Positions 1,363 to 33,215 are shown, counted from the stretch's first letter. The stretch: DNA of 39,158 nt from an uncultured bacterium (GCA_903930015.1 CAIYXB010000079.1:1-39158), one strand, 5' to 3'. Numbers and translations: made by a program. Notes: generated by a model not told the origin, from the letters alone.

Positions 1363-1363
1363 A

Positions 1364-2098: not shown

Positions 2099-2220
2099 TG
2101 GGGATTATCTAGATAAAGTAAAATTACCTCAATTTATCATATACCATTATAAAGTAAAGCTTATCCTAAATAAGCTTTAAAATTTGAATTTTTAGTAATT
2201 ATTATGCAAGAATCAGGAGA

Positions 2221-4010: not shown

Positions 4011-4033
4011 TTCATATTCTTAGGTAATCCCTT

Positions 4034-4055
4034 GGGGTCTGACCCCATTTTTCTT
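4034..4055 (+). terminator. weak Rho-independent terminator candidate
   Basis: ggggtctgacccc short GC hairpin followed by attttt ctt. Confidence 0.35.
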
Positions 4056-4087
4056 AACCTAGATAATTTCAAGTCCTACTACTATCC

Positions 4088-4104
4088 AGAGGACTTTTGA
4101 CCCC
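4088..4104 (+). promoter_or_regulatory. 17-mer AGAGGACTTTTGACCCC, copy 1 (contains TTGACC)
   Basis: Identical 17-mer recurs at 34565-34581. Both copies end exactly 35 nt before the ATG of a small membrane-protein gene. Confidence 0.4.
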
Positions 4105-4139
4105 CTACAAATTTTTCAAAATCTGAAAAGATACTGGAT

Positions 4140-5166: not shown

Positions 5167-5168
5167 AC

Positions 5169-17145: not shown

Positions 17146-19004
17146 GCAGCTAAAAGATTATTCCTAATACTACCTTTATTGTCTAAATAATATTTTGAAT
17201 TTCGTAAAGAACTTATGTAAGGATGAACAACTTTGTACTGATCAGCTCTCTTTCTATCGGCTTCTTTTTTTGATCTTTTTGGCTCAGCTAACAAAGTTAA
17301 CTTAGGAGCCCAGATTGTCTTAAAGGCATCCACAGCACCTTTCGTCTCTTCTTTATAAGCAACAATGTCCTGAATATGCCAATTACCCCAGTTCCTCATA
17401 AATTTAAAAATTTTATCTCTTGATTCTTTAAAGACATCAAGTTTAACTAATTCTGTTTTAAAGGCTTTGTCATCAAGTGATTTGTTCTCTAGCAAAGCTT
17501 TCAGTCCAGTTATAGGATTCGCTTCTGCTTTTTTTAGGGAGCTTTGAATATCATTCTCTAAAGAAGTTATAATATCCCTGAACTTAATCAATGCAGTATT
17601 AATTTTTTCAGGATTAGGAATTTCCATTACATGATCTTTATATAACTTATCTCTATCTACAACACCCTCAGCAACAAACCAATTTATCAATACTTGTGAA
17701 ACAACAGCATCAAATACATCATTAACATCATTTTGAGTAGCGTAACGCAGCATTCTTTCAGATAAAACAAAATCCCTAATTACATTAATAAGCCTATGTT
17801 GAATTTTATCTCCAAATTTATTTGTGTCCGCAAAATCAATCAAAGCTTGAATATCAACTCTCATTTCTTCAAAAGCTGCTGATTCAAAATAGTCTTTTAA
17901 AAAATAACCAACATCTTTTATTGTTCTTGGTTGCAGCCTCTGATCACCTGGCAATGCAATTTCAGCATCAGAATTTACTCTAGGAATCTCTCCAGTTCGA
18001 TGCAAATCCTCGTGACGAGTTAACCAAAAAGAACTTGCCTTAAAAATATCTGAAGGAAGAACATCCTTGAGTGTAGCAAAAGTATTTTTAGCAACTCTTG
18101 AAATATTACTTAAAGCATTCGATGAACTTTCATGAGCAGAAGTAAATAAATTTCCTATAGCAACATTCAATTTAGTTACAAAAGTATTACCGTTATCAAT
18201 CAATGGATTTAACAGCTTAGTTGTAAATTTTTTAAATCGATTGTAAAAAAAATCTGCTTTATAAAGAGTAAATGAATTGGGATTAACTTCACCTACATGC
18301 GCTTCAGGAAACAATCCCACCAAGCTCGGATTTTTCATTTCAAGGCTTGAATTAGTAGATTGTGAGACTCTTGATTTTGAACCTTCTAGGAGAAATTTTT
18401 CTAGAAACATCTTATCAATAGATTTCCAACCAATTACGGGTACATGCATATTTTTGATAAATGGGATTTTAAATAAACTGAAAATAAAATTCGTATCTAA
18501 TTGATCAAATACAGCTCTTGTACGACTAAAATCACCAATCTTTGAATCTTTAACTGCTACTTGAAACATAGGGTGAGATAAAAATTCATATTTTTTTCTT
18601 TGATCAACAGATAAAGATTTTGAAATATGATTATCACTGTGTAGATCAAAATGTGCTTCAAATATTTTTTGAAATTCTCCCTGCAACTCTCTTTTTAAGC
18701 GAATCTCTTTATCAATTAGCTGGCCCTTATCTAATGTATTAGCTAAGCTATCATAAACAGCTTGTAGCTCAGCTGCTTTATCATCGATGAGAGTGTTTGC
18801 TTTTATAGTTAACTCATCAAGCACTTTAAAATTTTCTTTACTTAAATGTAATCCAGCAAATTTTGGCACTGGCACATGTAAAATACCTGAATCAGGCTCA
18901 ATAATTTTTTTTCTTACTGAAGGCTGAAGTCCCAAATCACTTACAATCTCAAGAGGGTGAACTGAGGGAGTATTTCTTTTTAAACTAGTAATTGCTGTAA
19001 CCAT
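17142..19004 (-). CDS. hypothetical protein (620 aa), no recognisable domain
   Basis: Long uninterrupted ORF. Stop codons overlap convergently with the LuxR-type gene. Confidence 0.5.
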   Translation of the reverse strand: MVTAITSLKRNTPSVHPLEIVSDLGLQPSVRKKIIEPDSGILHVPVPKFAGLHLSKENFKVLDELTIKANTLIDDKAAELQAVYDSLANTLDKGQLIDKEIRLKRELQGEFQKIFEAHFDLHSDNHISKSLSVDQRKKYEFLSHPMFQVAVKDSKIGDFSRTRAVFDQLDTNFIFSLFKIPFIKNMHVPVIGWKSIDKMFLEKFLLEGSKSRVSQSTNSSLEMKNPSLVGLFPEAHVGEVNPNSFTLYKADFFYNRFKKFTTKLLNPLIDNGNTFVTKLNVAIGNLFTSAHESSSNALSNISRVAKNTFATLKDVLPSDIFKASSFWLTRHEDLHRTGEIPRVNSDAEIALPGDQRLQPRTIKDVGYFLKDYFESAAFEEMRVDIQALIDFADTNKFGDKIQHRLINVIRDFVLSERMLRYATQNDVNDVFDAVVSQVLINWFVAEGVVDRDKLYKDHVMEIPNPEKINTALIKFRDIITSLENDIQSSLKKAEANPITGLKALLENKSLDDKAFKTELVKLDVFKESRDKIFKFMRNWGNWHIQDIVAYKEETKGAVDAFKTIWAPKLTLLAEPKRSKKEADRKRADQYKVVHPYISSLRNSKYYLDNKGSIRNNLLAA

Positions 19005-19081
19005 TAATTATTACTAAAGAACATTATATAAGAAGTTAACTAATTACACTAATATTTATTATTTTGATATAATTTAATTAA

Positions 19082-20029
19082 ATGGAATCAAAATTAGAGA
19101 TAAAAAATGACTTCTGGGGAGAACTTGATCTTGACGGTGTAATAACAATAGCATCAAGACTAAAAAGGTTATCTGATCTTTTTTATCAACAAGTACAAGA
19201 AGTATATGATTCAAGATTAAGAAGTTTTAAAACCTCCTGGTTTTCGGTACTAGCAACAATCAAAAGAGAAGGTGTTATTGATTTTAAAACTCTTGCAGAT
19301 AAAAACAATGTTTCAAACTCTGCAATTTCGCAAGTAATAAGAGAATTAGAAAACAAGGAACTTGTTGATATTAAAATTGGATTAGATAAAAGATCAAGAT
19401 TAATTTCATTAACTCCAAAGGGAGATAAAATACTTAGCAGTATAATTCCTGACTTAATTGATATCGAATCTGTACTTAAAGATATTTTAGGTAGAGATGG
19501 ATCTTTTTTAATAAAAGTCTTGGATAAAACAGAATACAAACTTAGAAAAAGTTCTTTCTTCGATATGCTTGAAATTTCAATTGATAAATATAATACAAAG
19601 GATAAAGATTCGTTTAGAGAGCTTAATATGGAGTGGATAAATGAATATTTTGGCTCATGTGAAGATTTTGATATTAGTTTTTTTGAAAGACCTGAAGACT
19701 TTACCTTCAACAAAGGGGGTTTTATATTACTTGCCAAGCAGAATGATAAAGTTATTGGAAGTATCGCACTTATACCTGAATCAAAGACAAGTTTAGAAAT
19801 AGCAAAATTAACTACACATAAAGACTTTAGAAGAAGAGGCATAGCACAAAAACTTTTAGACTCAGCAATTATTTTTACCCAAGCAAATTCTTACAAACAA
19901 ATTACGGCTCATTCTAATACTTGTTTAAAAGAAGCTCAAAAATTTTACGAGAAAAATAAATTTGAATCTAAACCATATCAAGATGATAGATATAATAGAG
20001 TAGATGTTATATACTCAAAGAAGATTTGA
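19082..20029 (+). CDS. MarR-type HTH / GNAT N-acetyltransferase fusion protein
   Basis: Winged-helix segment (VSNSAISQVIRELENKELV...DKRSRLISLTPKG). C-terminal GNAT motif A (HKDFRRRGIAQKLLDSAI). Confidence 0.75.
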   Translation: MESKLEIKNDFWGELDLDGVITIASRLKRLSDLFYQQVQEVYDSRLRSFKTSWFSVLATIKREGVIDFKTLADKNNVSNSAISQVIRELENKELVDIKIGLDKRSRLISLTPKGDKILSSIIPDLIDIESVLKDILGRDGSFLIKVLDKTEYKLRKSSFFDMLEISIDKYNTKDKDSFRELNMEWINEYFGSCEDFDISFFERPEDFTFNKGGFILLAKQNDKVIGSIALIPESKTSLEIAKLTTHKDFRRRGIAQKLLDSAIIFTQANSYKQITAHSNTCLKEAQKFYEKNKFESKPYQDDRYNRVDVIYSKKI

Positions 20030-20046
20030 CTAGGAATAAGTAATCT

Positions 20047-21237
20047 ATGGTAAGTGCTACAATTCCCGAAATTCAAACAGGTATTCCAGTTATTAGGGAT
20101 TTTCATAATGTCCCTAGAACTCAGGTAGTTACTACTCAAATCGATGAAAAAAGAGTAATAGGGAAGGGACTTGCCAAACAAACTCTTAGATTTGATTACC
20201 AAACGGAGGACCTGAAATTTTTTTTAGGAGAAGATGGTTTTAATCAATTTATATCTCAACTAGAAAAACAAAATCCAGATAAAGCAATTTCACAAACTGA
20301 TTACGATGTTGCTTTTTTAAAGTATCTTACTATCTCTTCTAACAATCAATTAGAAAAAGGGCTTGGTTCACTCAAAGATATCGCAAACAAAGTGATGAGT
20401 CAAGTACCAAGCTTATTAATCTATAGTGCTGGGCAGGAGGTTCAAGATCTTTTTGAACACCAACCGAGATTAACTCAAAAAGCAATTGAATATTTAGTTC
20501 TTGATGATGAAAGATCTGGACTCGCAAGTCAATTCAAAGATTTCAATAAATCAACTAATTACAATATCACTTCTGATGCTAAAAGAGAATTATTTTACGA
20601 ATTAGCAATGAGGGTACTTAGAGCTAAAGTAATTAAAGCTTGGACAAACCCTAAAGTAGAGAGCCAAGATCAACTATATCAAGCAAGGTCAGAGGCTTTA
20701 AAACAAATTCAATTAATAGAAAAGGGAAAAGAAACTAGTATGCTTACATCAAGAAGTAATAAAGCTTTAACTCTAGCTCAATTGCTTGCTGTGTCTGCAA
20801 TAGTTTTAGCTGGGTTGAATGGAATATTAGGTAAACAAGTAACTGATCTTAATCAAGTGGTTGGTGATAAACAGCTTGAACTTGAACAAAGACGAGGTTT
20901 ATCTATATTACAAGGGGATACTATTCCAACCTCAACACAAGAACAAGCACTTAAAGCGCTCACCCCAACCGAGCAACAATTCTTTAGGGATCTATCGAAT
21001 GAATTAATTAAGCAAGCAAAATTAAGATTTCCAAATGAAACTAAACGTGAATTTTCTTTTCTACTAGGTAAACTAGAACAAGATAAAATCAAAATGATAT
21101 TAAAAAATGAAGGCAGGATTCATTTCACGATACCTATACGTACATTCCAGGAATTATACAATAAATCAACAGTCATATCAACAGAAACTAGTCCAATAGA
21201 AAGACTTATTTTAGAGTTACCTAAATATTTAAATTAA
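20047..21237 (+). CDS. hypothetical protein with one central TM helix
   Basis: Long ORF. TM segment LTLAQLLAVSAIVLAGLNGIL. No domain recognised. Confidence 0.45.
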   Translation: MVSATIPEIQTGIPVIRDFHNVPRTQVVTTQIDEKRVIGKGLAKQTLRFDYQTEDLKFFLGEDGFNQFISQLEKQNPDKAISQTDYDVAFLKYLTISSNNQLEKGLGSLKDIANKVMSQVPSLLIYSAGQEVQDLFEHQPRLTQKAIEYLVLDDERSGLASQFKDFNKSTNYNITSDAKRELFYELAMRVLRAKVIKAWTNPKVESQDQLYQARSEALKQIQLIEKGKETSMLTSRSNKALTLAQLLAVSAIVLAGLNGILGKQVTDLNQVVGDKQLELEQRRGLSILQGDTIPTSTQEQALKALTPTEQQFFRDLSNELIKQAKLRFPNETKREFSFLLGKLEQDKIKMILKNEGRIHFTIPIRTFQELYNKSTVISTETSPIERLILELPKYLN

Positions 21238-21649
21238 CACTTCCCAATTTCTTCCTTTTACAATGAATTGGATCATTAGGAACTGCATCACAATACGTTG
21301 GAGCACCACAACATGGATTCCAAGTATAAGGTGAATCACAGCCGTAAGGACAATCATCATCATCTACTCCATAAAAAGAAGGTGTTGTAATAAGTTTTAA
21401 CAAACTAGATTCATTCTGATAATTTCCAACCAATTCATCTATAGCAGATTTAAAAGCTCCGCCTAATCTTTTTGTAAATTTAGCGTCTTGTGTTGCAGAC
21501 TCAATACAAACAGTGACAAGAGGATTTCTTCCGATTGTCTTACAATTAGTTTCAGCAAAAGTTAAAACATTGGATTTCTTAAAACTTTGTGCAAAAACAG
21601 CGATTTGAAAAATCACTAAAACGGGTAATATAAATTTTAAAAACTTCAT
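21221..21649 (-). CDS. small secreted cysteine-rich protein
   Basis: Signal peptide MKFLKFILPVLVIFQIAVFA. AGGAGG Shine-Dalgarno. Cys-rich C-terminus (DDDDCPYGCDSPYTWNPCCGAPTYCD...HCK). Confidence 0.5.
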   Translation of the reverse strand: MKFLKFILPVLVIFQIAVFAQSFKKSNVLTFAETNCKTIGRNPLVTVCIESATQDAKFTKRLGGAFKSAIDELVGNYQNESSLLKLITTPSFYGVDDDDCPYGCDSPYTWNPCCGAPTYCDAVPNDPIHCKRKKLGSVNLNI

Positions 21650-22226
21650 CCTAAGTCCTCCTAAAGACTCACCCCAGTGACTACCCCTAGGTAAATTACT
21701 TGTCGGACGAATTAAAATAAATCTAGAATAAAATACATTAGTACTTAATTAATTTTTTTTAATAGTTAAAAATGGGGTTTTTTCTTAGCAATGCCTTTGA
21801 ATGAGTTACGTTCACTAATCAAATCGATGCGGCTAAGTCTTTGTAAAAAAAGAAAGGTGTTTATAGTAACGGCAGTAACTTCATCTCTGTCGGTATTCGA
21901 AATGCTATTTCTCTTTTTTGGGTTTACAAAAATTATCTTTTTGTTTTGCATGAGTGGGGGACCTGCCTTTTGGTTTCTATAAACACCTGGGTGTTCACCC
22001 TTCAATATCGGTTAAGTGCTTAACTAAATGAATTAATCATTTCTTATAAAAGAATAAAAAAAATCCTTATTTTACAAGGGTTTTTCAGAATTAATTTCGC
22101 AAATACGAAGACACTATTACAAAAATATGTGTAATAGTGTTGAAGAGAAAATCTCAAATTTCAAAAATGCGCAAGTTTCCTTGTGAATTTAGGATTTACA
22201 AAAAGTTATGTTGAAATTATTTAATA

Positions 22227-22360
22227 AATAGACATCTTGCGAAACATCGTTTCGCAGTAGATGTCGCCCGAAAAAAGGTCGCAACGACGCCACTCTTCGG
22301 AAGTTGCGCTAAGGATAATTCCGACTTTCACAAAAGGTCTAATGAGTATCTAACTTAAGA
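22227..22360 (-). repeat. unit U copy B (reverse complement of 14987-15118)
   Basis: Hand alignment shows only a handful of differences over about 132 nt. Contains the gacatct...agatgtc and gcgaaac...gtttcgc nested hairpins. Confidence 0.65.
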
Positions 22361-22363
22361 AAA

Positions 22364-22580
22364 TGGTACCGGTATCTGGGTTTCGCCCGGACTGTGTGTG
22401 CCGCCCCGCTCGAAGATACATAGGAAAAATAGTATAGGCGTAGCTGCCGACTTTTAGGAGGCAGATGCGCCTATACTAATTCTTCTAGCTGTAGTTTGTG
22501 AGCTTGCGAGCAAACTACAAGTGAGTGTCTTCGAGCGGGGCGGCACACACAGTCCGGGCGAAACCCAGATACCGGTACCA
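22364..22580. repeat. 217-bp palindromic element: perfect 53-bp inverted arms enclosing two hairpins
   Basis: 22364-22416 is the exact reverse complement of 22528-22580 (checked base by base; 34/53 are G/C). Inner hairpins are 22430-22440/22468-22478 (11 bp) and 22490-22498/22511-22519 (9 bp). Confidence 0.75.
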
Positions 22581-22786
22581 CTCTGACAACCGAATACGCT
22601 TTGGCTTTAAGCCAGCCCTCGGCTTCGCTTCGCTCAGCCTCGGGCGTCTCGCGCTAACAAGTGAGACTACAGTGTTAAAGAGCTGCTTCTTTAAGTTTGA
22701 TTGTAATTTTTGTCTGAAATTTTACAGGGCTGCTGCAGCTGTCAGTCAGCAGAGCTGAAAAATTTCAGACAAAAAATCATAGGGAA
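22573..22786 (+). repeat. repeat X' (left inverted repeat of the island)
   Basis: 22573-22658 equals the reverse complement of 30986-31071 with 1 mismatch. Lower-identity homology with an indel of about 22 nt continues to about 22786. Contains an 11-bp perfect stem (22712-22722/22760-22770). Confidence 0.7.
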
Positions 22787-22831
22787 TGCAAGGAGGCGAA
22801 GCCGACGCGCTAGTCTTCATTGCGCAGCAAT

Positions 22832-22983
22832 TTGAGTGAGCCCGTAGGGCGAGCGAATATATTACTGCAATACGAGAAACCCTAAAGTGCCACTTTAGGG
22901 TTATACACAAGCCTTTATCTCAGCGTGCGGAGCGAGACCTAGGCTCGCGGACTCCTGAACAAGGGTGAATTTCTAGCTACGAC
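22832..22983 (+). repeat. repeat Y copy 1 ending in the Z motif (22964-22983)
   Basis: Direct repeat of 25321-25470, clearly alignable by eye over about 150 nt with numerous substitutions. Conserved hairpins ccctaaagt/actttaggg and gcgag/ctcgc. Confidence 0.6.
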
Positions 22984-23178
22984 CGTATTCCATCAGAATT
23001 ACCACTCATAGGTTGGAAGCGAGACAAACAAATAATTACAAGGTCTTTGATATTTTTTTTCTAAACAATTCAATGAAAGTTGATGTCTTTGCTTTTATGA
23101 AGTGAGACTGAAGGGCTCACGGAACCAATCTGAGACGCTAGACTCAGATTGCAAAAACCTATTCAATTTGTATATTAA

Positions 23179-23913
23179 TTAATGTATACGTCTCCAACGT
23201 TTAAAAGCCTTGACCTCAGTAGAATTTAAACCAAACCACTCACCATTTTTTCTTTTATCCACAAAACGCTTATGCCAGTATGCTTCTATGCCGCTTGGAT
23301 CGTCAGTTTTGATTACATGAACCAATTTAAGATCTTCAGGCATTTGAACTCTCAATTCCTTTCCTCGCTGAACAGAATCTTTACTTTTACCAATTTTGTA
23401 CTCGTTACGATTACCGTGTTTATAAAGATATACTTCTCCTACTTCCAAACTAGTATCAGTTCCATTTATATCTTGTTCACGGGAAGATGTTTTTATCACT
23501 GGCTCACAAAATTCTAAAATATCTTCATAACTATTTTTATCACTACAATATTCTATTATTTTTGATGCAAGATGTTGTTTTGAGCCATAACGATTTTCAT
23601 AAGTTGATTTGTAAGGAAATTTATCGTTACTACATGCTTCCAACCTAATCTCTGAGGCAGTGGGAAATTTATTTAATTTACGCATTAGTTCAATAAATTT
23701 CTCAATAAGAAATTTATCGCTATATGCTCCCTGCAAAGAATTGGGAGTAAATCCTGCTTCTGTAATCGCGTCTGAAAACTTAGCCCAATGTTTTTGCCAA
23801 TCATAGCGTTTAATACCAATTTCTTTTTCAAACTTTGCCATACCTAATGGCTTGCCACCATTTGACTCTGTGGTTCTTTTTATCTCAGCTAAAATCTCTT
23901 CTTTACCTATCAA
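23179..23913 (-). CDS. T5orf172 (GIY-YIG-like, MUG113-type) domain protein with two N-terminal homing-endonuclease-associated-like repeats
   Basis: C-terminus VYLYKHGNRNEYKIGKSKDSVQRGKEL...IEAYWHKRF...NGEWFGL. TTG start preceded by AAGGAGA, which overlaps the ImmA stop codon. Confidence 0.6.
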   Translation of the reverse strand: MIGKEEILAEIKRTTESNGGKPLGMAKFEKEIGIKRYDWQKHWAKFSDAITEAGFTPNSLQGAYSDKFLIEKFIELMRKLNKFPTASEIRLEACSNDKFPYKSTYENRYGSKQHLASKIIEYCSDKNSYEDILEFCEPVIKTSSREQDINGTDTSLEVGEVYLYKHGNRNEYKIGKSKDSVQRGKELRVQMPEDLKLVHVIKTDDPSGIEAYWHKRFVDKRKNGEWFGLNSTEVKAFKRWRRIH

Positions 23914-23924
23914 ATGGTTCTCCT

Positions 23925-24425
23925 TTAATTGCTTTTAAATATTTTGTGATTATACACATGCCACCAAGCTGCATCTTTACTAACATTGTAAAGTCTAGCT
24001 AAACTTTCAACATCTCCATCCAGCTTTTCATAATCTTGCTTAAATGAATCAATAGGCATAAGTAACTCAGCAGCAAACTGGTTTGCCTCTACTTCCTTTG
24101 GATCATCATTGCAAAAATCTAATTTTGTTTCAGAGTCTGCATGTCCTAGAATGACATGACCTAATTCATGCGCAACAGTAAATCTTTGTCTAACTATAGA
24201 TTTTTTGTTGTTATAACCAATAATGGCTCTACCATTTTCAAAAAAATGAAGACCGTCAATGCTTCCCAAATCCCTTGCGTGAATCTCTACATTCATAGTC
24301 TTACGTACTTGTTTGATAATTTCATTAAGAACTATAGGGGCAGATTTTAAGCCAGTCTGCTCCAGTAATTTTTTAGCAAACTGCTTTGCAATTTTAATTC
24401 TTGCTTTATTCTCTTCTTCAATCAT
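23925..24425 (-). CDS. ImmA/IrrE-family zinc metallopeptidase
   Basis: HELGHVILGH motif followed downstream by EVEANQFAAELLMP. ATGA overlap with the XRE gene. Confidence 0.85.
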   Translation of the reverse strand: MIEEENKARIKIAKQFAKKLLEQTGLKSAPIVLNEIIKQVRKTMNVEIHARDLGSIDGLHFFENGRAIIGYNNKKSIVRQRFTVAHELGHVILGHADSETKLDFCNDDPKEVEANQFAAELLMPIDSFKQDYEKLDGDVESLARLYNVSKDAAWWHVYNHKIFKSN

Positions 24426-24769
24426 TTATTCTGGCTTTTTACAAACTCAATGAAATCTAATATTTTGTCCCTATCTTTGGGTTTCAATTGTGAAAGTTCT
24501 TTATCTTTACGAAAAACTAATTTGAAATCTAAGTCTTCAAGATCTTCTGATTTGCCTAAAAAGAAATTAATATCCCTATGCAGCACCTCTGCAATAGTTT
24601 CTAAATCTTCCACTGAAACTTTTCTATTCCCAGACTCAATCAATGAAATTGCAGTACCAGATTCAAAGCCTAATAATTCTGCTAATCTTTTTTGTGATAT
24701 TTCTGCGGACTCTCTTGCTTCTTTAATTCTAGCCCCAATAAGTTTATACTTATTATCATCGCTTTTCAT
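24422..24769 (-). CDS. XRE/Cro-cI-family HTH repressor
   Basis: IGARIKEARESAEISQKRLAELLGFESGTAISLIESGNRKVSVEDLETIAEVL. Confidence 0.85.
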   Translation of the reverse strand: MKSDDNKYKLIGARIKEARESAEISQKRLAELLGFESGTAISLIESGNRKVSVEDLETIAEVLHRDINFFLGKSEDLEDLDFKLVFRKDKELSQLKPKDRDKILDFIEFVKSQNK

Positions 24770-24775
24770 ATTGAA

Positions 24776-24842
24776 ATTATAGACTTTTCAAAAAGTGTTG
24801 ACAAGTCCTTATCAAAATGATAAGCTAGGGTTATCAAAGTGA
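24776..24842. promoter_or_regulatory. back-to-back promoters with overlapping -35 boxes, plus palindromic operator sites
   Basis: Plus strand: TTGACA (24798-24803), 17 nt, TAAGCT (24821-24826). Minus strand: TTGTCA (24804-24799), 17 nt, TATAAT (24781-24776), ending 6 nt before the XRE ATG. Palindrome CTTATCAAAATGATAAG at 24808-24824 and half-site TTATCAAAGTGA at 24831-24842. Confidence 0.5.
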
Positions 24843-24885
24843 GGCACACGTGTGTTTCACAAGAAAACTAGAGGAAATTAGAATA

Positions 24886-25167
24886 ATGGCAAATTATGAA
24901 ATAAAATGTATTAACAAAATTGATAGAAATGATCCTACTGAAAGAATCCAACGTGTTGGTGGTTATAGCAACGGCTCGAATTGGAAAATTACTGTCGCAG
25001 AAGCTATTGGTTACATAGAAAGTAAGCAACATAGTTTTTATGTAACTAAAAATGGTAAAACCGTATGGGTCATTGTCGCTGTGAGTAGATATGGAAACAA
25101 ATATATTAAAACCGAAGCTGATGGTAACGAGCCAAATAACCTGCTCAGCTTGCCAGAGTGTGTATAA
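24886..25167 (+). CDS. DUF3892-like small protein
   Basis: Start placed at the ATG at 24886 (GAGGA upstream). C-terminal ...TEADGNEPNNLLSLPEC matches my memory of the DUF3892 signature. Confidence 0.55.
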   Translation: MANYEIKCINKIDRNDPTERIQRVGGYSNGSNWKITVAEAIGYIESKQHSFYVTKNGKTVWVIVAVSRYGNKYIKTEADGNEPNNLLSLPECV

Positions 25168-25172
25168 ATGGT

Positions 25173-25238
25173 ATGACAGTAAAATACTTCATCTATGCTC
25201 GCAAGTCTTCCGACTCAGAAGATAGACAAGTGCTTTCT
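25173..25238 (+). pseudogene. displaced 5' stub (first about 22 codons) of a paralogous large serine recombinase gene
   Basis: MTVKYFIYARKSSDSEDRQVLS compared with MQYFLYARKSSESEDRQMLS of the intact gene at 29457. Most nucleotides match by eye, including an identical 15-mer TCAGAAGATAGACAA (25215-25229 = 29493-29507). Homology stops at about 25238. Starts 5 nt after the DUF3892 stop. Confidence 0.7.
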
Positions 25239-25248
25239 GAACCTTGGA

Positions 25249-25311
25249 GTCGTAGCTATAAATTCACCCATTCTTCGGCTTTAACTAAAAAGGTGAATTT
25301 CTAGATACGAC
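25249..25311. repeat. inverted pair of Z motifs (20-nt arms, 2 mismatches, 23-nt loop containing CTTCGG)
   Basis: gtcgtagctataaattcacc (25249-25268) against ggtgaatttctagatacgac (25292-25311). Confidence 0.6.
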
Positions 25312-25320
25312 CCAATTGTC

Positions 25321-25470
25321 TTGAGTGAGTCAAAGGCGAACGAAAATATATTACCAAAATACAAGCAACTCTAAAGTACCACTTTATACTTATGCACAAG
25401 CCCTTAATTCAGCATGCGAAACGAGACCCAGGCTCGCAGAGCCATGAACAAGGGTGAATCTCTAGCTACA
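25321..25470 (+). repeat. repeat Y copy 2 ending in the Z motif (25453-25470)
   Basis: Direct repeat of 22832-22983. Ends 22 nt from the stop codon of the minus-strand TIGR04141-like gene. Confidence 0.6.
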
Positions 25471-25491
25471 CCCCCCTATCTTTTTTAAAGA

Positions 25492-27327
25492 CTATTCATC
25501 AAGATCACTCTTGCAAATTTGACATATCTTTAAGTCAAAATCATATTTTTTAACTTCTTGATTTAGCTGAAAAATAGAGAACTTTGCAATATTTGATTCA
25601 AAGGATTCAATATCTGTGATCGATCTTATCGTAGAAGCTTCATCTACAAAAGCTAAACAAAATTCAATTCTTTTTTTGCTCCTAAATAAATCAATGAAAT
25701 CAGATTCAGAATATCTTGATAGCCAATCACTAAATTTTCTAAAATATTCATCCTCACCTTTTGATACTCGAACAGCTTTTTCGTAAACTTTTTTTAAAAA
25801 CTCACCTTTCTTTGTTTTTATAAGATCTTCATGAAGTCTTCTTGCTGAGACTTGGATTTGGCTAGAAAGCTCACGAATAGAATTATTAAATCCTTTCTTC
25901 ACATGAATAATTTGTATAGAATCTTCATTCACCTTAATAAGATCACAGAGTTCAATATTCTCAACAATTAACCTATCAAGTACAATAAAATTTGCATTCC
26001 TATAGAACGAAATATTAAAATCTTTTTCTTTCTTATGCTTGAGAATGTTCCAAGGTACACCAATAACAGAATTATCAAGATGCGTATCTAGTAAAGTTCT
26101 TATCCCACTATTAAGGTTGTCAATAAAATTCCTTTTTACTATATACCAAAGTCCATCAATAAGAAAATAAGTTTGTTTCTTAAATTCAAACTCACCATGA
26201 ATATGACTAGTCAAAGAGCCTACAGTACAGACTTTACCGTCATAATCAAACGATGTAATATTAATGTTTTTAATGAGTCTTAAAAAACTTTCTTTATCGA
26301 TATCACTATATTGTGAAGATACTTTAAGCAACTTAAATATTTCTATCGGTCTAGTCAAAGATACTTCATCAATTATTGCTTCAAAACTTCTACCAATAGT
26401 TATTTTATACTCATTCGCACATAAATACTTTTCATAATCTTTATGACACAGATCAAATTCATTAAAAGGATCATTTGCATTTTCAATATTACAATATTTT
26501 TTGAATAGTTCTTCACCGATATGTTCATTAAGACTATCTCGTAGTTCCTTGCCACGCTTTCCATTTTTACTTAGAGATTTAATTTGACTTAAATCTATTG
26601 TCGACTTCATTCTTAAAATAGTGCTAAGTTTCTTTAAAATAAGTGTAATTTCATAAGGATCTAATATCTTTTTAAGGAGGAATGATGACTTCGCCTCACA
26701 AGTTAAGTTCTTTTTTATATCTTTCTCATTAAAACCTAACTGCTTTTGAAGAACACCTTGATCTAATTCTGCTCTAATCACTTTATAAACACTTCCAAAG
26801 TTATCTTCCTCTGTGATTCTTTGATCATCTCGAAAAAAACGTGTGTTAGCTATAATTTGTCCAGTTAAAATTCTTTCTTGTACTGATTTCACTGATTTAG
26901 AACTTGATGAAATTAACTTTTCAAGTATATTTAAGCCAAAATCATCAACAACAAAAGGTTGAATAATATGATGGCCATAACCTCCTGTAACCGCAAAAAT
27001 ATTTTTTCCATCAGAAAAGAAACAAACAAACGATGGAATATTATTTGTTTTTAAATTGTATTTCAAATCATCAGTCATCAAAGTTGATAAGAATTTATAC
27101 CAAGTTGCCTCTCTTGAAAATACACCACTGTAAATGTAAATATCAAAATTATTTAATTCTAATCCACTAACAGTCTTTCTCTCTTCAAATTTTTTCTTTT
27201 CACCCTTATTATAAAATTCAATAACTTTATTACAAATTTCCTTATGATCAACCAAACCTGTTTTCTGTGATATCAAATCAAGATTTAATAGATAGATGCC
27301 AGTCTGTATACCAGATTTACTTCCCAT
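25492..27327 (-). CDS. TIGR04141/DUF6119-like protein with a C-terminal PD-(D/E)xK-like motif (putative nuclease)
   Basis: C-terminal ...VLDRLIVENIELCDLIKVNEDSIQIIHVKKGFNNSIRELSSQIQVSARRL. Start preferred at the ATG at 27327 (GGGAG Shine-Dalgarno) over the TTG at 27360. Family call is from memory of family signatures and needs an HMM search. Confidence 0.5.
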   Translation of the reverse strand: MGSKSGIQTGIYLLNLDLISQKTGLVDHKEICNKVIEFYNKGEKKKFEERKTVSGLELNNFDIYIYSGVFSREATWYKFLSTLMTDDLKYNLKTNNIPSFVCFFSDGKNIFAVTGGYGHHIIQPFVVDDFGLNILEKLISSSSKSVKSVQERILTGQIIANTRFFRDDQRITEEDNFGSVYKVIRAELDQGVLQKQLGFNEKDIKKNLTCEAKSSFLLKKILDPYEITLILKKLSTILRMKSTIDLSQIKSLSKNGKRGKELRDSLNEHIGEELFKKYCNIENANDPFNEFDLCHKDYEKYLCANEYKITIGRSFEAIIDEVSLTRPIEIFKLLKVSSQYSDIDKESFLRLIKNINITSFDYDGKVCTVGSLTSHIHGEFEFKKQTYFLIDGLWYIVKRNFIDNLNSGIRTLLDTHLDNSVIGVPWNILKHKKEKDFNISFYRNANFIVLDRLIVENIELCDLIKVNEDSIQIIHVKKGFNNSIRELSSQIQVSARRLHEDLIKTKKGEFLKKVYEKAVRVSKGEDEYFRKFSDWLSRYSESDFIDLFRSKKRIEFCLAFVDEASTIRSITDIESFESNIAKFSIFQLNQEVKKYDFDLKICQICKSDLDE

Positions 27328-27462
27328 GAACTCCCTATCTAAACCATTGCTCCATTCCAAAGATAAATTAGTTTAATTTCAATATCATTAATTATTTTTT
27401 GATTAGCATTAAAGGCATAATCTAAATTTTCAAGTTCTATATTCATACACATCAGATCAAAA

Positions 27463-29343
27463 TTAAACTATTTTCTTTTTCTCAAGAAGCTTAGCTTTAA
27501 AATGAGCCTGAGACTCACGCTTTACTTCATCAAGAAAATTACTCTCTTCAATCTCTTTAAATTGTTCATTACTAATATTTTTTCGTTGTTTTGATTGTAT
27601 ACCCAATCCATCATTAATTCTCTTGCTTACAAAACGTTGTATCCAAGCAAAATCAGTAAAGCGAGGGTTCAGGACTCTGCTTTTAAACTTTAGATTCAAT
27701 TCTTTCAATATGTCCGTCACTATACTTTTTGCTTTTTCATTTAATAAATTTTTACTTGCTTGACGTTTATTTTTTGGCTTTGGCGTTTTTTTAACAAAGG
27801 AGTCTACTTTATAACCTTTATTACTCAACACTTCTAAAAATTTTAATTTCTGAGCGCTGTCCATATTTGCAAAATCAGATAGAGCTTCTTTAACTTTTTC
27901 ATCTTCAAGATCAATAAAATCTGAAGAAAAGTCAAGTAAATTCTCACCCGTTTCTCTTATTGCAGCAAGTTTTTCATCTTTTTGATTATTTGTATCGGTT
28001 TCTATATCAAAATTTACAAAGGAGTCCTCTAAGTTACCTTTACTATCATCCACAGAAATTTCAAGTTTACTAATAAAATCCTGATCTTCTTCATCAAATA
28101 ATTTAAATTCATCAAATCTTTCAATCTGATTCAAACCAAGATGTGAAACAACCCAACACTCATTAGTCTCAGCATGCTTTCGAATTACCCTACCAATAAA
28201 TTGAATATATGGATTAAGCGACCTGAATGGCTTAAAGATTGCAGCAACACCAAGAGGTTTGTGATCGAAACCTTCTCCCAACATACCAACATTTACGATT
28301 ACGTCAATTTTGTTTTTCTTTAACTTATCTAATACTTCACTGTTATCACTTTCAGTTTCTTTTGAATTAACAAGTCCTACTTTTAATCCCATTCTTTCAA
28401 AAGCGGGTTTAACGAATTCTCTTGCATGCCTTATAGTCATTGCAGCTGCAATAATCTGATGGTTTTGATTTGGGAACTTCGTTTTTAAGACATTAAGCTT
28501 TTCAACTGCTTTTTGAGCAATAGAAGCACAACAGTCTTCAGACATAGCAACACTACGTCTAAACCAAGCATCATCTTTAAGTTTCATAATGTCACTAAGA
28601 GAATATTCTTTCCCAGCTTCATCTAAAAATCTTAATTCAACTTGTTCTGGAGAAACATTACTCGTTCTAATATTTCTAATAATTCGATCTCTAATCGCAT
28701 CCTTAAAGTGATAAGTATAGATCTTTTCCCCATCAAGCTTTTTACCATCAGACCGAAAAGGAGTCGCAGTAAGTCCAATTATTTTTGCATTTGAAAAAAA
28801 ATCTATAATCGTCTTATAGGTATTTGCTTCTTGATGATGAGCTTCATCAATTATAACGAGATCAACATCATCGCTTCTGCTTGCAAAAAACTTTTCAATA
28901 TCATTGAGTTGATGATAATTTCCAATAATTATTTGATGTTCGTCAACATCCGAATTATTAACAGTCGAATCAAGAACCAATGTAAAAAGTTCTGATTCCG
29001 TCAATTCTTTATCTGATAAAAGCTCTAGTGCTTTATAAATATTTGCTCCAGGGTTCTCAGTTATGTCCAGATCATCATTTATTTGAGTTGCTAAAGCTTT
29101 ATTCGGTGTAATAATAAGAGTTTTTTTCTTACACAATCCAAAAGGCAGTATTGCAATTAGAGCCGACTTCCCTGTACCTGTAGGCATTTGAATCAGTGTT
29201 TGTCGATTATAATTTTTTTTAGAATAATGCTGAAGTGCTGAACTAAATGCTTCAGTTTGGCATTCTCTTAACTTCTTTCTAGAAATCTCTATTTCACTAA
29301 ATACATTACTCATCTGATTAATAATATCCAAATTACTAAACAT
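27463..29343 (-). CDS. SF2 DEAD/DEAH-box helicase (ResIII + Helicase_C type) with a C-terminal extension of about 200 aa
   Basis: Motif I MPTGTGKS, Ia IITPNKAL, II IIDEAHHQ, III GLTATPFR, VI QFIGRVIR. Confidence 0.8.
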   Translation of the reverse strand: MFSNLDIINQMSNVFSEIEISRKKLRECQTEAFSSALQHYSKKNYNRQTLIQMPTGTGKSALIAILPFGLCKKKTLIITPNKALATQINDDLDITENPGANIYKALELLSDKELTESELFTLVLDSTVNNSDVDEHQIIIGNYHQLNDIEKFFASRSDDVDLVIIDEAHHQEANTYKTIIDFFSNAKIIGLTATPFRSDGKKLDGEKIYTYHFKDAIRDRIIRNIRTSNVSPEQVELRFLDEAGKEYSLSDIMKLKDDAWFRRSVAMSEDCCASIAQKAVEKLNVLKTKFPNQNHQIIAAAMTIRHAREFVKPAFERMGLKVGLVNSKETESDNSEVLDKLKKNKIDVIVNVGMLGEGFDHKPLGVAAIFKPFRSLNPYIQFIGRVIRKHAETNECWVVSHLGLNQIERFDEFKLFDEEDQDFISKLEISVDDSKGNLEDSFVNFDIETDTNNQKDEKLAAIRETGENLLDFSSDFIDLEDEKVKEALSDFANMDSAQKLKFLEVLSNKGYKVDSFVKKTPKPKNKRQASKNLLNEKAKSIVTDILKELNLKFKSRVLNPRFTDFAWIQRFVSKRINDGLGIQSKQRKNISNEQFKEIEESNFLDEVKRESQAHFKAKLLEKKKIV

Positions 29344-29456
29344 TTGCTTGAATTTAGCTAATCCATATTAACAAAACTGTCCATTCAATAGCTTCTTTTT
29401 ATCTAACAATATTACTACCTGGCCAAACCACACAAAATCCTTTAAAATAAAGCTCT

Positions 29457-31010
29457 ATGCAATACTTCCTCTACGCCCGCAAATCTTCTGAATCAGAAGA
29501 TAGACAAATGCTATCCATTGAGGCTCAAATCCAGGAGTTAAAGGACTTTGCGAAGAAAAACAACTTAGAGATAGTCAAAACCTTCACTGAATCCATGTCA
29601 GCCAAGGCACCTGGGAGGACTGTCTTTAATCAAATGCTGACCGAGCTTGAATGTGGTACGGCTGATGGCATACTGGCTTGGCATCCTGACCGTCTTGCAC
29701 GAAACATGTTTGACGGTGGAAAACTTCTGCACCTTATCGACAAGAATATAATTACTGATCTTAAATTTCCTAGTTTTTATTTCGACAAATCGGCTAATGG
29801 AATTTTTAATCTCTCTATTGCTTTTTCTCAGGCTCAATACTTTGTTCAAGGACTCAGAGAGAATGTCCTAAGAGGAATTAGACAGAAACTAAGACGCGGG
29901 GAATATCCAGGCAAGGCTCCTTACGGCTATATCAATAACCTAAAAACTAAAACAATAGAACCAGATCCTGAATATTTTCACATAATCCAAAAACTACTTA
30001 ATAAATTCTCTGAAGGCAATATGACTCAAGCAATGTTCAGAAAAGAATTATTTAATCATGGTTTACAAACCAAGAACGGTAACCAATTAAACTATGCTTC
30101 ACTATTTCATATTCTCACGAATCCATTCTACTATGGGGTCTTTAGGCTAAATGGCGAGCTTCATCAAGGCTCACATCAGCCAATGATCTCTAAAGAAACT
30201 TATGACAAGATTCAAGAAGTTCTTAAAAGCAAAACTAGAAAAGTAAATCACTCAGAAGAAAAGAAAAAAGAAAAAAACTATCTCTTCCAGGGTCTTGCTC
30301 GCTGTGGTAATTGTGGCTATGGAATCGTTCCAGAATGGCACAAGAAGAAATCTGGTTTGGTTTTTAAGTATTATCGTTGTAGCCGTAAGTCTAGAGTCTG
30401 CACTTGTGATGAAAAACCAGTAAACGAGAATCATCTTGCACAGCAAGTAGAAGAATTTATCAGCCACATAGCTATGCCTAATGATTGCTATAAAAAACTT
30501 CAAGAAAGAACCAAGCAATGGGCGGACGAAGATACTAAAAACTCTAAAGTGGCACTTCAGGGTTTATCTACAGAACTAACAAGTATCCAAAATAAGCTTA
30601 ATCAGCTTCTTGATCTTCAACTAGACGGTGAGATCTCCGTAGCTGAATACAAAAACAAAAAAAACACTTTAATCGAGAAAAAGGCCAATTTAGAAGATCA
30701 AAAAGCCAAAGTTTTAGCTAAAGGCTCAATTTGGGTTGAACCACTAGAAGATTGGATGAAAACCTGTAACCAAGCCGCTCAAAGCCTAAAGAGTCAAAAC
30801 TTTCAAGAGATGAATCGTATTCTTCAAAAAATCGGGTTGAACCACAGAATCTCGAAGAAAAAACTAGATATACAGTTTGTTAAACCCTATGATTTTTTGT
30901 TTGAAATCCAGCCACTGACTGACAGCTGCAGCAGCCCTGTAAAATTTACAGACATAACTAATCATCAAACGCAAAGAAGCAGCGCGTTAGCGCGAGACGC
31001 CCGAGGCTGA
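29457..31010 (+). CDS. large serine recombinase (resolvase domain + recombinase domain + zinc ribbon + coiled coil)
   Basis: YARKSSESEDRQ catalytic-serine region. LAWHPDRLARN. CGNCGYGIV...YYRCSRK zinc ribbon. Coiled-coil LNQLLDLQLDGEISVAEYKNKK. The last 42 or so codons lie inside repeat X. Confidence 0.85.
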   Translation: MQYFLYARKSSESEDRQMLSIEAQIQELKDFAKKNNLEIVKTFTESMSAKAPGRTVFNQMLTELECGTADGILAWHPDRLARNMFDGGKLLHLIDKNIITDLKFPSFYFDKSANGIFNLSIAFSQAQYFVQGLRENVLRGIRQKLRRGEYPGKAPYGYINNLKTKTIEPDPEYFHIIQKLLNKFSEGNMTQAMFRKELFNHGLQTKNGNQLNYASLFHILTNPFYYGVFRLNGELHQGSHQPMISKETYDKIQEVLKSKTRKVNHSEEKKKEKNYLFQGLARCGNCGYGIVPEWHKKKSGLVFKYYRCSRKSRVCTCDEKPVNENHLAQQVEEFISHIAMPNDCYKKLQERTKQWADEDTKNSKVALQGLSTELTSIQNKLNQLLDLQLDGEISVAEYKNKKNTLIEKKANLEDQKAKVLAKGSIWVEPLEDWMKTCNQAAQSLKSQNFQEMNRILQKIGLNHRISKKKLDIQFVKPYDFLFEIQPLTDSCSSPVKFTDITNHQTQRSSALARDARG

Positions 31011-31071
31011 TCGAAGCGAAGCCGAGGGCTGGCTTAAAGCCAAAGCGTATTCGGTTGTCAGAGTGGTACCG
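30885..31071 (-). repeat. repeat X (right inverted repeat of the island)
   Basis: Reverse complement of X' (22573-22786). Overlaps the recombinase 3' end and the last 8 nt of the tRNA. Confidence 0.7.
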
Positions 31072-31152
31072 ATGGCCGGACTTGAACCGGCACAGGAATT
31101 AATTCCCGACAGATTTTAAGTCTGTTGCGTCTACCGATTCCGCCACATCGGC
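31064..31152 (-). tRNA. trnL: tRNA-Leu(UAA), class II, CCA-encoded, no intron
   Basis: Folded by hand. Acceptor GCCGATG/CATCGGT (G1-U72 wobble). D-arm GCGGAATCGGTAGACGC. Anticodon stem ACAGA/TCTGT with loop CTTAAAA. Long variable arm GGAATTAATTCC. T-arm GCCGGTTCAAGTCCGGC. Discriminator A followed by CCA. Confidence 0.9.
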
Positions 31153-31271
31153 ACAGGAGAGAGTCATTTTGTAGACCAGACTTTAGAAGATTCTACACTA
31201 AGAAGAAAAATGTAAACATTAAGACTTAACTAGAGTTCTGGTGAAAATCCTAAAAGGGTTTCAGCAGAACT

Positions 31272-31868
31272 CTAATTGTATTGACTCAATAAATAATTAT
31301 AAGCGCTGCTTAGTGAATTCATCATTTCGTTTGTGTCTTCTTTTGTAAGATCTGGATGAATTAAACTAACCATTTTTCTATAAGCTTTTTTAATAACAGC
31401 AAAATCTAATTTTTGATCTAATCCAATATACAAAGAAGATCTTGCCCATATTTCTTTTTCTATAGACAAGTCTAAATTAATATCTGGGCGCTTTTCAAAA
31501 TTCAAAGAAGCTCCTTGAGAAAAACCTTCATTGAAATTTTTTCTCGCTTCTCTTTCCCTTTCATCAAGAAGCTTTTCTAGCTTTTTGATTTTACGCTCAA
31601 ACTTGTTTTTATTAAGAAGTAACTCTTGTATCAACTTATCATGACCAAAAGGTCTTTCCATATTTGAATAAATTATTTCTAAAATATCTAAATTTTCGTA
31701 TATAAACGTTCTTGGAATACCAAGTTCAAGAGCAATACTTCCTGGATGAATCTCCTGTCCGTTTACTTTTAGCGTTTCAATTATTCTAAGAATTTTTGCT
31801 TTATCTATACCTAGATCTTCAAAGCTAGGCATTACGATATTTGTAGAATTTTTGCTTTGATTAAGCAT
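31272..31868 (-). CDS. J-domain-containing protein
   Basis: C-terminal IKKAYRKMVSLIHPDL...SSAYNYL (HPD motif). The N-terminal region may be HTH-like. Confidence 0.55.
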   Translation of the reverse strand: MLNQSKNSTNIVMPSFEDLGIDKAKILRIIETLKVNGQEIHPGSIALELGIPRTFIYENLDILEIIYSNMERPFGHDKLIQELLLNKNKFERKIKKLEKLLDEREREARKNFNEGFSQGASLNFEKRPDINLDLSIEKEIWARSSLYIGLDQKLDFAVIKKAYRKMVSLIHPDLTKEDTNEMMNSLSSAYNYLLSQYN

Positions 31869-31912
31869 AAGATAAGCATAATTATTATCTCACATAAAGA
31901 GCAATTCACTAA

Positions 31913-32440
31913 TCAGCTCTTAGTTTTAGACTTTTTTTTCTTTCTATAAACAGAAGGTGACTGAGTTAAAGGATTATTCTTATCCCAGATACCTAAACCA
32001 CTAGCTTTTGCACTAATCTCAGCATTTTTTAGTCGCCCTAGATACTTAAGGTCTTTTGTAAAAGAATAAAGTTCAGCAGATCCTGAACTAATCATTTTTT
32101 CATTAATCAAAACTTCTTTGTCTTTATCGGCAAAAGCGTAGGCGAGGTGCCTTTTATACTTATCAATTTTTTGGATATCATATTCAAGAAAAATTATCAT
32201 ATCTTCACCTATTAATTTTTCTAATACAACTTTGGAATTGGGTCCCCAAGGTTTTTGTTTTGACTCTGGTGCATCAATCCCTAAAAGCCGAACTTGATAC
32301 TCATTACAGTCAATACAAGGATAATCCTTTACCAAAAATGAATCGCCATCAAAAACTTTTAATACTTCAACTGCATCAAGCTCAGTTTTTATACATGCCG
32401 ATAAAAGACATAAGCAAAAGAAAATACATAAGATTCGCAT
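31913..32440 (-). CDS. thermonuclease (staphylococcal nuclease-like) lipoprotein
   Basis: Lipobox LLSAC. VRLLGIDAPE motif typical of SNase homologues. Confidence 0.8.
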   Translation of the reverse strand: MRILCIFFCLCLLSACIKTELDAVEVLKVFDGDSFLVKDYPCIDCNEYQVRLLGIDAPESKQKPWGPNSKVVLEKLIGEDMIIFLEYDIQKIDKYKRHLAYAFADKDKEVLINEKMISSGSAELYSFTKDLKYLGRLKNAEISAKASGLGIWDKNNPLTQSPSVYRKKKKSKTKS

Positions 32441-32500
32441 AAATACTCATTCTACACGAGCTAAAGACAGCAAGACCTGATTTCTAGTAATATTACTTAA

Positions 32501-33214
32501 GTGGAAAAAGCTCCAAAAGCCTATAAATATATTGATTACATAATGGCAGCCTTTGTAACGGTGCTCTTAATATCAAATATAGTAGGCAGTATCAAAATCA
32601 CTAAAATTTGCTTGTGGGATGAATTTTGTTTTAGTGCAACAACTGGACTTTTTCTTTTTCCTGCAAGTTATTTAATAGGAGACCTCTTAACAGAAGTCTA
32701 TGGTTATTCAAAAAGTCGAAAAGTAATTTGGACTGGATTTGCTTGCCTGCTTGCAACAAATTTAATAATATTGTTTTTCAGATTTTTACCTAGCGATCCA
32801 TCTTGGGGACTAGAAGCTGAATATACAAAAATTTTTAGCCAAAGCTTAAGAGTGAGCCTTGCAAGTATGGTTGCATATTTCTGTGGCGAATTTACAAATA
32901 GTTTAGTTATTGCAAAATTAAAAGTTCTAACAAAAGGCAAATACCAAGCGCTTCGTATTATTGGATCAACTGCCGCAGGAGAGTTAGTAGATTCTATCTT
33001 AATACTCTTTCTTGGTTTTTATGGAGCACCAGGTTACCCTCTAGAACTCATGCTTAAAGTGCTTGTAGTTAACTATAGTTTTAAAGTTGCCTGGGAGATT
33101 GTCTTTTATCCAGTCACAAAACAATTACTTAAATTTCTCAAAAAAGCAGAGTCAGAAGATTACTATGATATTAATACAGACTTCAACCCATTTCATTTAG
33201 AGGCAAAAAAATAA
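32501..33214 (+). CDS. yhhQ: queuosine-precursor transporter (YhhQ/VUT family)
   Basis: LFPASYLIGDLLTEVYGYSKSRKVIWTGF and multiple TM helices. GTG start is uncertain. Confidence 0.7.
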   Translation: MEKAPKAYKYIDYIMAAFVTVLLISNIVGSIKITKICLWDEFCFSATTGLFLFPASYLIGDLLTEVYGYSKSRKVIWTGFACLLATNLIILFFRFLPSDPSWGLEAEYTKIFSQSLRVSLASMVAYFCGEFTNSLVIAKLKVLTKGKYQALRIIGSTAAGELVDSILILFLGFYGAPGYPLELMLKVLVVNYSFKVAWEIVFYPVTKQLLKFLKKAESEDYYDINTDFNPFHLEAKK

Positions 33215-33215
33215 T

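Follow-up and report, generated by a model that had tools for sequence, protein, structure and literature searches.

Do a helicase gene and a gene for a nuclease-like protein that stand side by side form a single defence system, or are they two defence genes that share a position? This question is raised by a 39,158-nucleotide (nt) stretch of DNA from an uncultured bacterium (GCA_903930015.1 CAIYXB010000079.1:1-39158; referred to here, at its full length, as the window), in which a superfamily 2 (SF2) DEAH helicase gene (27463..29343) is followed on the minus strand by a gene of the TIGR04141/DUF6119 family (25492..27327). An initial annotation, made from the sequence alone, had described the pair as a two-gene module resembling Hachiman. 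In this work we analyzed both proteins, the genomic contexts of their relatives and the island in which they reside. The two families do not co-occur in ~50 DUF6119 loci and 7 helicase contexts, and the idea of a two-gene Hachiman-like module did not survive this comparison. We lean, with modest confidence, towards two independent candidate defence genes that a small serine-recombinase element probably brought jointly to a tRNA-Leu hotspot.

The helicase gene encodes a RadD/XPB-like protein of 626 amino acids (aa) that matches the Pfam families ResIII (8.9e-28), DEAD (1.1e-15) and Helicase_C (2.3e-9), as well as SWI2_SNF2. Motif I (P54-T-G-x-G-K59), motif II (D166-E-A-H-H170), the TATP motif and motif VI are unchanged in an alignment of 26 orthologs (47-56% identity, full length), and the protein is placed in SF2 because these motifs are present and invariant. 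A core at residues ~20-410 is followed by a linker (~434-481) and by a conserved helical C-terminal domain (482-625); the full set of core motifs and the tail of ~200 aa that had been annotated are therefore confirmed. In the structural model, with a pLDDT (predicted local distance difference test) of 75 overall, the linker is of low confidence (pLDDT <50 at 446-476, and secondary structure predicted nowhere in 434-481), residues 482-625 are confidently predicted as an all-helical domain, and no nuclease-like element was seen in the tail. The nearest solved structure is that of Escherichia coli RadD (Foldseek 8e-15; sequence 6.4e-20), followed by RecQ, XPB and the HsdR motors. Orthology with RadD was ruled out, given that the protein scores 107 bits against the NCBIfam equivalog, whose cut-off is 720. 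PADLOC returned partial, generic matches only, i.e. to PbeA (8e-22), to type IV and type I restriction endonucleases and to HamB, and the PHROG 16 family, 'DNA helicase', matches with 8.5e-59.

The second gene encodes 611 aa when read from the ATG at 27327, which is the likely start since an AGGGAG ribosome-binding site lies 6 nt upstream; a longer open reading frame (ORF; 25492-27360, 622 aa) begins with a TTG at 27360. Both the presence of a partner of this size in the same orientation and its assignment to TIGR04141/DUF6119 had been noted initially, and the assignment is borne out by scores above the two curated cut-offs: 106.6 bits against 27 for PF19614 (DUF6119; E 1.8e-30) and 92.5 bits against 35 for TIGR04141 (E 2.1e-26). 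In an alignment of 24 family members that includes the window protein (19-37% identity), it is collinear end to end with the 23 others (~590 aa) and 14 columns are invariant. A search of the 24 sequences for other Pfam domains, at E values up to 5, gave none that was credible. The possibility that the two genes are chance ORFs or pseudogenes was rejected, as both proteins are full length and keep all the family-invariant residues.

The evidence that carries our reading comes from the relatives of each protein. For DUF6119, 42 loci (~32 non-redundant) with relatives of 19-37% identity were collected by two homology searches and a genome scan, mostly from Bacteroidota with a few others, and 7 further loci were obtained by exact look-ups (L209, L210, L212-216), which brings the total to ~50. 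The helicase was searched near these genes, within a radius of ~8 kb, by tblastn, phmmer and a family hidden Markov model (HMM); none of the three gave a match in the 42 loci, and the 7 further ones did not contain the helicase family either. All-against-all clustering of the ORFs from the 42 loci revealed no recurrent partner, save for synteny in Sediminibacterium-like genomes, and the DUF6119 relatives usually stand alone with an upstream gap of their own. An exhaustive profile search of the family yielded 3,683 clusters at 50% identity, and the architecture was read in the best 150 of them: all are single-domain proteins, ~590 aa when full length and none above 648 aa, therefore no fusions exist in this set. 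P0016, which at 37% identity is among the closest relatives, has a private 68-aa helix-turn-helix (HTH) gene 8 nt upstream.

The neighbourhoods of these genes are mostly those of defence islands. A census of two genes on either side (104 proteins, from the ~32 non-redundant loci) was carried out; the neighbours include MmeI-type IIG restriction-modification (RM) genes, HsdR, BrxC, Shedu SduA, PARIS AriA, Septu PtuA, AbiLi, GmrSD, RmuC and integrases. In locus L014 (1431-9812) genes for a PLD-SNF2 helicase of 1,173 aa and an Eco57I-like methylase of 1,008 aa immediately precede the DUF6119 gene, and in L020 (7989-11520) it is overlapped by a 599-aa GmrSD_N gene. Most relatives are found in chromosomal islands devoid of mobility genes; a single marginal match was found on plasmids, and none in IMG/VR or in PHROGs. 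DUF6119 is thus a defence-island resident and normally a stand-alone gene.

The helicase has thousands of homologs, of which the best 120 are 46-60% identical over the full length, tail included. The contexts of its orthogroup (47-56% identity) were analyzed at 7 loci other than the window, and a DUF6119 gene was present in none of them. At one locus the helicase gene comes 3 nt after a DNA methylase/R.HinP1I fusion; at another it follows an N6/N4 methylase gene and precedes by 3 nt a type III Res-like (ResIII/RE_endonuc) gene; at a third it stands between RhuM and HsdS, the latter 1 nt on; and in a fourth context AbiEi-AbiEii, the helicase, an EcoRI-like methylase and a GmrSD_N/HNH restriction endonuclease succeed one another. 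It also follows an HTH-M78 fusion, and it is found in P4-like satellites of Pantoea and E. coli. In E. coli AR_0013 (L211; NZ_CP032204.1 2622084-2623892) the ortholog is the sole gene between psu and int, an interval that is the P4 defence hotspot as defined by Rousset et al. (PMC9122126); this satellite is integrated at ssrA, and the ortholog was present in 4 of the 5,426 complete E. coli genomes. Both families were met in a single one, L056, of the 160 metagenome and viral loci; a distant helicase of the plasmid/phage type (33% identity) is there oriented convergently with a DUF6119 reading frame broken into two parts. Since the relatives never travel together elsewhere, two separate candidates are likelier than one Hachiman-like system.

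Close orthologs of the helicase were found neither in IMG/VR viral contigs, using tail-specific patterns, nor on plasmids, where all matches are at or below 38% identity. Helicases of the same length with ~31% identity, tail included, form part of Rep-helicase-small-ORF (~70 aa) modules of small mobilisable plasmids. Such a module, with a replication initiator, is carried by a 5.9-kb Klebsiella plasmid (L207) and by an Acinetobacter plasmid (L208), and the pair formed by the helicase and the small ORF recurs in phage contigs.

How the two genes came to be neighbours in the window is suggested by the island that surrounds them. To the right of the helicase, and divergent from it, a large serine recombinase gene (29457..31010, plus strand; Resolvase, Recombinase and Zn_ribbon_recom domains; PHROG integrase 1.7e-81) reads towards a tRNA-Leu(taa) gene (31064..31152, minus strand; detected by ARAGORN and Rfam). 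The G+C content at third codon positions (GC3) of the recombinase gene is 0.35, against ~0.20 for the two cargo genes. On the right the island ends at the 3' end of the tRNA gene: it is exactly from this position, 31064, rightwards that the window is collinear with a related strain (88-91% nt identity). In the related strain (L217, 102-7761) other genes, for proteins of 975, 461, 288, 438 and 251 aa, stand beside tRNA-Leu, which is therefore a variable integration site; this cargo has almost no Pfam or PADLOC matches, i.e. weak ones to DUF4365 and to coiled-coil or SMC-like proteins only. We read the region from 22.4 to 31.1 kb of the window as a composite island assembled from two or more serine-recombinase elements, nested or decayed. 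The youngest unit of the island (~25.3-31.07 kb), as we read it, holds only DUF6119, the helicase and the recombinase, and we assign to the older part a capH-like HTH gene, a capP-like M78 peptidase gene, a T5orf172/MUG113 gene and a DUF3892 gene. The earlier description of a tRNA-linked island with a recombinase and defence-like genes thus proved accurate.

The limits of these units are marked by partial copies. A 5' remnant of 20 codons from a second serine-recombinase gene (25179..25238, plus strand), which matches the beginning of the intact gene with 85% nt and 75% aa identity, probably marks the junction of the older element with the helicase/DUF6119/recombinase unit. After this remnant, segments within 25289-25478 repeat 22856-22989 at 76-86% identity, and the remnant together with the repeats (25179-25478) indicates that elements have inserted and decayed here more than once. 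The left end of the composite island is probably at 22554..22784, where 30885-31090 is repeated in inverted orientation, from the 3' end of the recombinase gene across the spacer to the first bases at the 3' end of the tRNA (arms 81-90% alike). A search for sister elements among viral contigs yielded one relative of the recombinase, with 25% identity.

If the two genes are independent, the DUF6119 protein should be considered on its own. The initial annotation had pointed out a D...ExCD...HVKK pattern in its C-terminus, resembling that of PD-(D/E)xK nucleases. This pattern lies in a conserved acidic/His-x-Lys/Gln cluster at codons 434-490 (25858..26028, minus strand), a putative PD-(D/E)xK-like active site in which E434, N438, E459, D462, H475, V476, K477 and Q490 are invariant, and D451 almost so, in the 24 family members; the motif in the window protein is VLD451..E459-L-C-D462..H475-V-K477-K. 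The residues of the proposed pattern thus stood, and a nuclease-like function of the C-terminus is plausible, with slight support from structure. Structure prediction followed by a Foldseek search, which had been suggested as a check, gave a confident AlphaFold model (pLDDT 83.2; predicted template modelling score, pTM, 0.74) but no significant match in the PDB, the best being CdiA-CT (E 0.079, prob 0.69). In the model the cluster occupies a helix (434-439), three strands (447-449, 463-466 and 470-478) and a second helix (482-504). The weak PDB matches are enriched in PD-(D/E)xK nucleases, which make up ~10 of the best 50 (CdiA-CT, bunyavirus cap-snatching endonucleases, Hjc, HincII and XPF).

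Among the predicted viral structures of BFVD, the model matches best an RdgC-like 'recombination-associated protein' from a phage (E 8.2e-4, prob 1.0, 389 columns), in a superposition with template modelling scores of 0.21/0.31 and a root-mean-square deviation of 14; a second RdgC-like match has an E value of 0.044. No solved RdgC structure is among the 50 PDB matches listed (down to E 2.8), and the protein has neither a Pfam RdgC domain nor sequence similarity to RdgC. RdgC has been reported to form a ring that binds DNA non-specifically, and RexA, the exclusion protein of phage lambda, to share this fold, a DNA-binding ring or horseshoe (PMC11077077). From the model we infer that an RdgC-type, DNA-gripping N-terminal and middle region may be joined in this protein to a C-terminal nuclease.

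The C-terminus is more likely than not a PD-(D/E)xK-like nuclease. This assignment has to be weighed against the view that the protein is no nuclease, and would instead act through DNA binding alone, as RdgC or RexA do, in exclusion or in the modulation of recombination, or else be the toxin in a toxin-antitoxin pair that has escaped recognition. This view is in agreement with the best PDB match being below significance, with the lack of sequence relatives of solved structure in our searches, with a histidine, H475, at the position usually taken by the acid of the (D/E)xK motif, and with RdgC-like DNA-binding proteins being the strongest structural match; moreover, RexA excludes phage without nuclease activity (PMC11077077). 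Nevertheless, invariant E, D, E, D, H-x-K and Q residues spread over two helices and the three strands between them have the look of a metal-dependent PD-(D/E)xK site, and nucleases of this fold recur among the PDB matches. We regard a protein devoid of nuclease activity as somewhat unlikely.

Several points weigh against the preferred reading. They are adjacent and co-oriented, and the AT-rich spacer of 135 nt from the helicase stop to the DUF6119 start codon (27328..27462, minus strand) contains no terminator-like site, with promoter-like matches at chance level. They have GC3 values of 0.21 and 0.19 and a codon-usage distance of 0.15, although this composition is uninformative on a joint origin because the likeness of the two genes extends to the host core. 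Both are apparently the entire cargo of one recombinase unit of ~5.7 kb, an arrangement equally expected of genes that function as one. The helicase is closely linked to a nuclease or RM gene at 4 of the 7 other loci, so it is conceivable that it habitually pairs with one nuclease or another. In addition, the sample of contexts is limited to tens of loci, with the pattern-based scans confined to the subclade that bears HVKKGF, and nuclease activity of DUF6119 is unproven since no significant PDB match was obtained. One alternative is a lineage-specific two-gene helicase-nuclease system of the Hachiman or XPB-Bax1 type, in which the helicase would load on, or sense, foreign or damaged DNA and feed or activate the DUF6119 nuclease. 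The helicase family would then be a partner-swapping motor that works with different nucleases in different genomes. The order of the genes, with the helicase first on the same strand, the 135-nt gap with no terminator-like site, the unit in which the pair looks like the only cargo and the similar composition fit such a system, as do the helicase orthologs that lie 1-3 nt from RM-type genes in 3 of the 7 contexts and overlap one in a fourth, the DUF6119 gene of L014 that directly follows a helicase and a methylase, and the fact that XPB, a structural neighbour of the helicase, works with the nuclease Bax1 (entry 6p4o). However, no second pair was found in the ~50 DUF6119 loci or in the 7 other helicase contexts, both families are clearly maintained in genomes where the other is absent, the gap of 135 nt is far wider than the 1-3 nt seen at the RM-coupled helicases, and fusions are absent from the best 150 of the 3,683 DUF6119 clusters. 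We thus consider a two-gene system unlikely. More specifically, a new helicase-nuclease system that would be the sole cargo of a mini-island of ~5.7 kb, and would consist of a promiscuous RadD-like helicase and a nuclease with a DNA clamp of the RdgC/RexA kind as its scaffold, is in our opinion distinctly unlikely.

It could also be argued that the two genes serve the mobile element itself, the helicase in replication or maintenance of the excised element and DUF6119 as a DNA-binding exclusion or stability factor. The distant helicases of ~31% identity in the Rep modules of 5.9-kb enterobacterial plasmids and of Acinetobacter plasmids, and beside small ORFs in phage contigs, agree with this idea, along with the PHROG 16 match and the divergent orientation of the helicase and recombinase genes. 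In contrast, the close orthogroup was not found in IMG/VR contigs or on plasmids and sits in chromosomal RM loci and in the satellite defence hotspot, the window island has no Rep or initiator gene, and the DUF6119 relatives reside mostly in chromosomal islands without mobility genes. The distant plasmid and phage relatives of the helicase keep a role in element maintenance as a minor alternative, which we judge very improbable.

The preferred reading, i.e. two independent candidate defence genes, can be further delimited by comparison with known systems. In Hachiman, as in the window, an SF2 helicase and a protein that bears a PD-(D/E)xK-like motif stand side by side among defence-island genes, and the helicase may control or feed the nuclease. 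However, the partner found here is DUF6119 (611 aa, with an extra RdgC-like region) and not the DUF1837 protein HamA: DUF6119 was the only domain detected in it and in its 24 relatives at E values up to 5, with no DUF1837 and no PADLOC match to HamA, as the initial annotation had already suspected. Neither is the helicase of the HamB type, as its match to PADLOC HamB1 (2.9e-5) covers residues 51-169 (119 residues) of the protein, for a model of 995 positions, and is surpassed by the partial matches to PbeA and to type IV and type I restriction endonucleases. Two further differences are that the helicase gene comes first here and that the adjacency of the two families is not conserved across genomes.

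RadD (YejH) and archaeal XPB are the nearest to the helicase core in solved structure and sequence, and RadD likewise consists of an SF2 core with a C-terminal extension; nonetheless, the C-terminal helical domain of the window helicase is specific to its own orthogroup, which is found in RM loci and satellite hotspots and not at a conserved repair locus. The resemblance of DUF6119 to RdgC and RexA is that of its best structural match, and both occur in contexts of conflict with phage (PMC11077077), but DUF6119 is twice as long, has the additional conserved nuclease-like domain and lacks a RexB-like membrane partner. With the helicase + DUF2290 system (Rousset et al. 2022), the orthologs of the window helicase share the condition of helicase-containing cargo in the P4 psu-int interval; this system was excluded, since DUF2290 is absent both from the window and from the neighbourhoods of the orthologs and PADLOC gave no match to it. 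Crouga, a system of the P4 hotspot reported in 2026, includes a ResIII/DEAD/Helicase_C protein (PMC13586616), and the likeness, compared by domain description only, is that of a helicase as P4-hotspot cargo. Single-protein nucleases of the Shedu SduA type are similar to DUF6119 in being stand-alone and sporadic, in standing among RM, BREX and Abi genes and in having a C-terminal PD-(D/E)xK-like motif; they differ in N-terminal architecture, and DUF6119 has no homology to any of them. For the DUF6119 protein PADLOC gave no credible match, and the pair corresponds to none of the systems named there, in accordance with the earlier view that it is not a named system. In the full-text literature on DUF6119 and TIGR04141 we found nothing that links the family to defence, and nothing relevant was found on KwaB together with RdgC.

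The older part of the island carries a module of its own. A capH-like HTH gene (24422-24769; PADLOC capH 6e-14; Pfam HTH_3) and a capP-like gene for an M78 peptidase with a HELGH motif (23925-24425; PADLOC capP 5.3e-32; Peptidase_M78) overlap by 4 nt and are followed by a gene for a 244-aa T5orf172/MUG113 protein (23179-23913; Pfam MUG113 and T5orf172; HNH-associated repeat), all on the minus strand. The combination of an HTH protein with an HExxH M78 peptidase in overlapping genes, ahead of the T5orf172 gene, is that of a CapH/CapP-type regulator pair, and the operon has the appearance of a defence module with a single effector, under the control of a regulator and inducible by damage. The T5orf172 effector gave a weak PADLOC match only, to PDC-S57 (1.2e-3). 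A DUF3892 gene (24850..25167, plus strand; 105 aa; PF13031 1.5e-21; phage homologs in PHROG 8224) lies directly before the recombinase remnant. The CapH/CapP module is not evidently a regulator of the helicase and DUF6119 genes, because it lies 722 nt past the DUF6119 stop and behind the DUF3892 gene on the opposite strand.

Other features of the region were also noted. The inverted repeats of ~210-230 nt that bracket the whole 8.5-kb island diverge directly past a palindromic TGGTACC core (at ~22.57 and ~31.07 kb), and could represent an inverted sister element or a recombinase-mediated inversion. At 22364-22580, within a GC-rich (43%) non-coding region (21.65-23.18 kb), there is a hairpin-capable sequence of ~217 nt with no Rfam match, whose 56-nt arms are 98% complementary around an inner 28-nt palindrome; its outer arms each end in TGGTACCGG, as does the 3' end of tRNA-Leu. 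The genes at 15.4-21.6 kb, among them those for a sigma-70 factor and a MarR-GNAT protein, look ordinary. The segments 1-14760 and 31064-37380 of the window are collinear with the related strain (L220 and L217), and they are ~90 kb apart on its 664-kb scaffold, in the parts of which that were read no counterpart of 14761-31063 was found. These split flanks may reflect a rearrangement or a large difference between strains, or possibly a mis-joined contig.

If the two genes are indeed independent, the youngest unit of the island would deliver two cargo genes that work separately. In the DUF6119 protein, the RdgC-type N-terminal and middle region would grip DNA and the C-terminal domain (E434, D462, H475-x-K477 and Q490, with D451 and E459) would cut the DNA so held, an action that may destroy or stall invading or replicating phage DNA. 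The helicase, as a member of a widely transferred RadD/XPB-like orthogroup, would be an ATP-driven DNA translocase or unwinder that may act alone or in support of a nearby nuclease. Both families are uncharacterised and are concrete candidates for defence genes. A new Hachiman-like pair would matter more if it were true, but this is the less likely reading. The helicase orthogroup, which is found beside RM genes or alone in the P4-like hotspot, is a second candidate and raises the question of what a helicase devoid of a nuclease contributes to restriction. DUF6119/TIGR04141, a sizeable family (3,683 clusters) for which PADLOC has no model and whose members have a predicted clamp-plus-nuclease build that would be new among the described defence proteins, is for these reasons a concrete single-gene candidate for phage defence.

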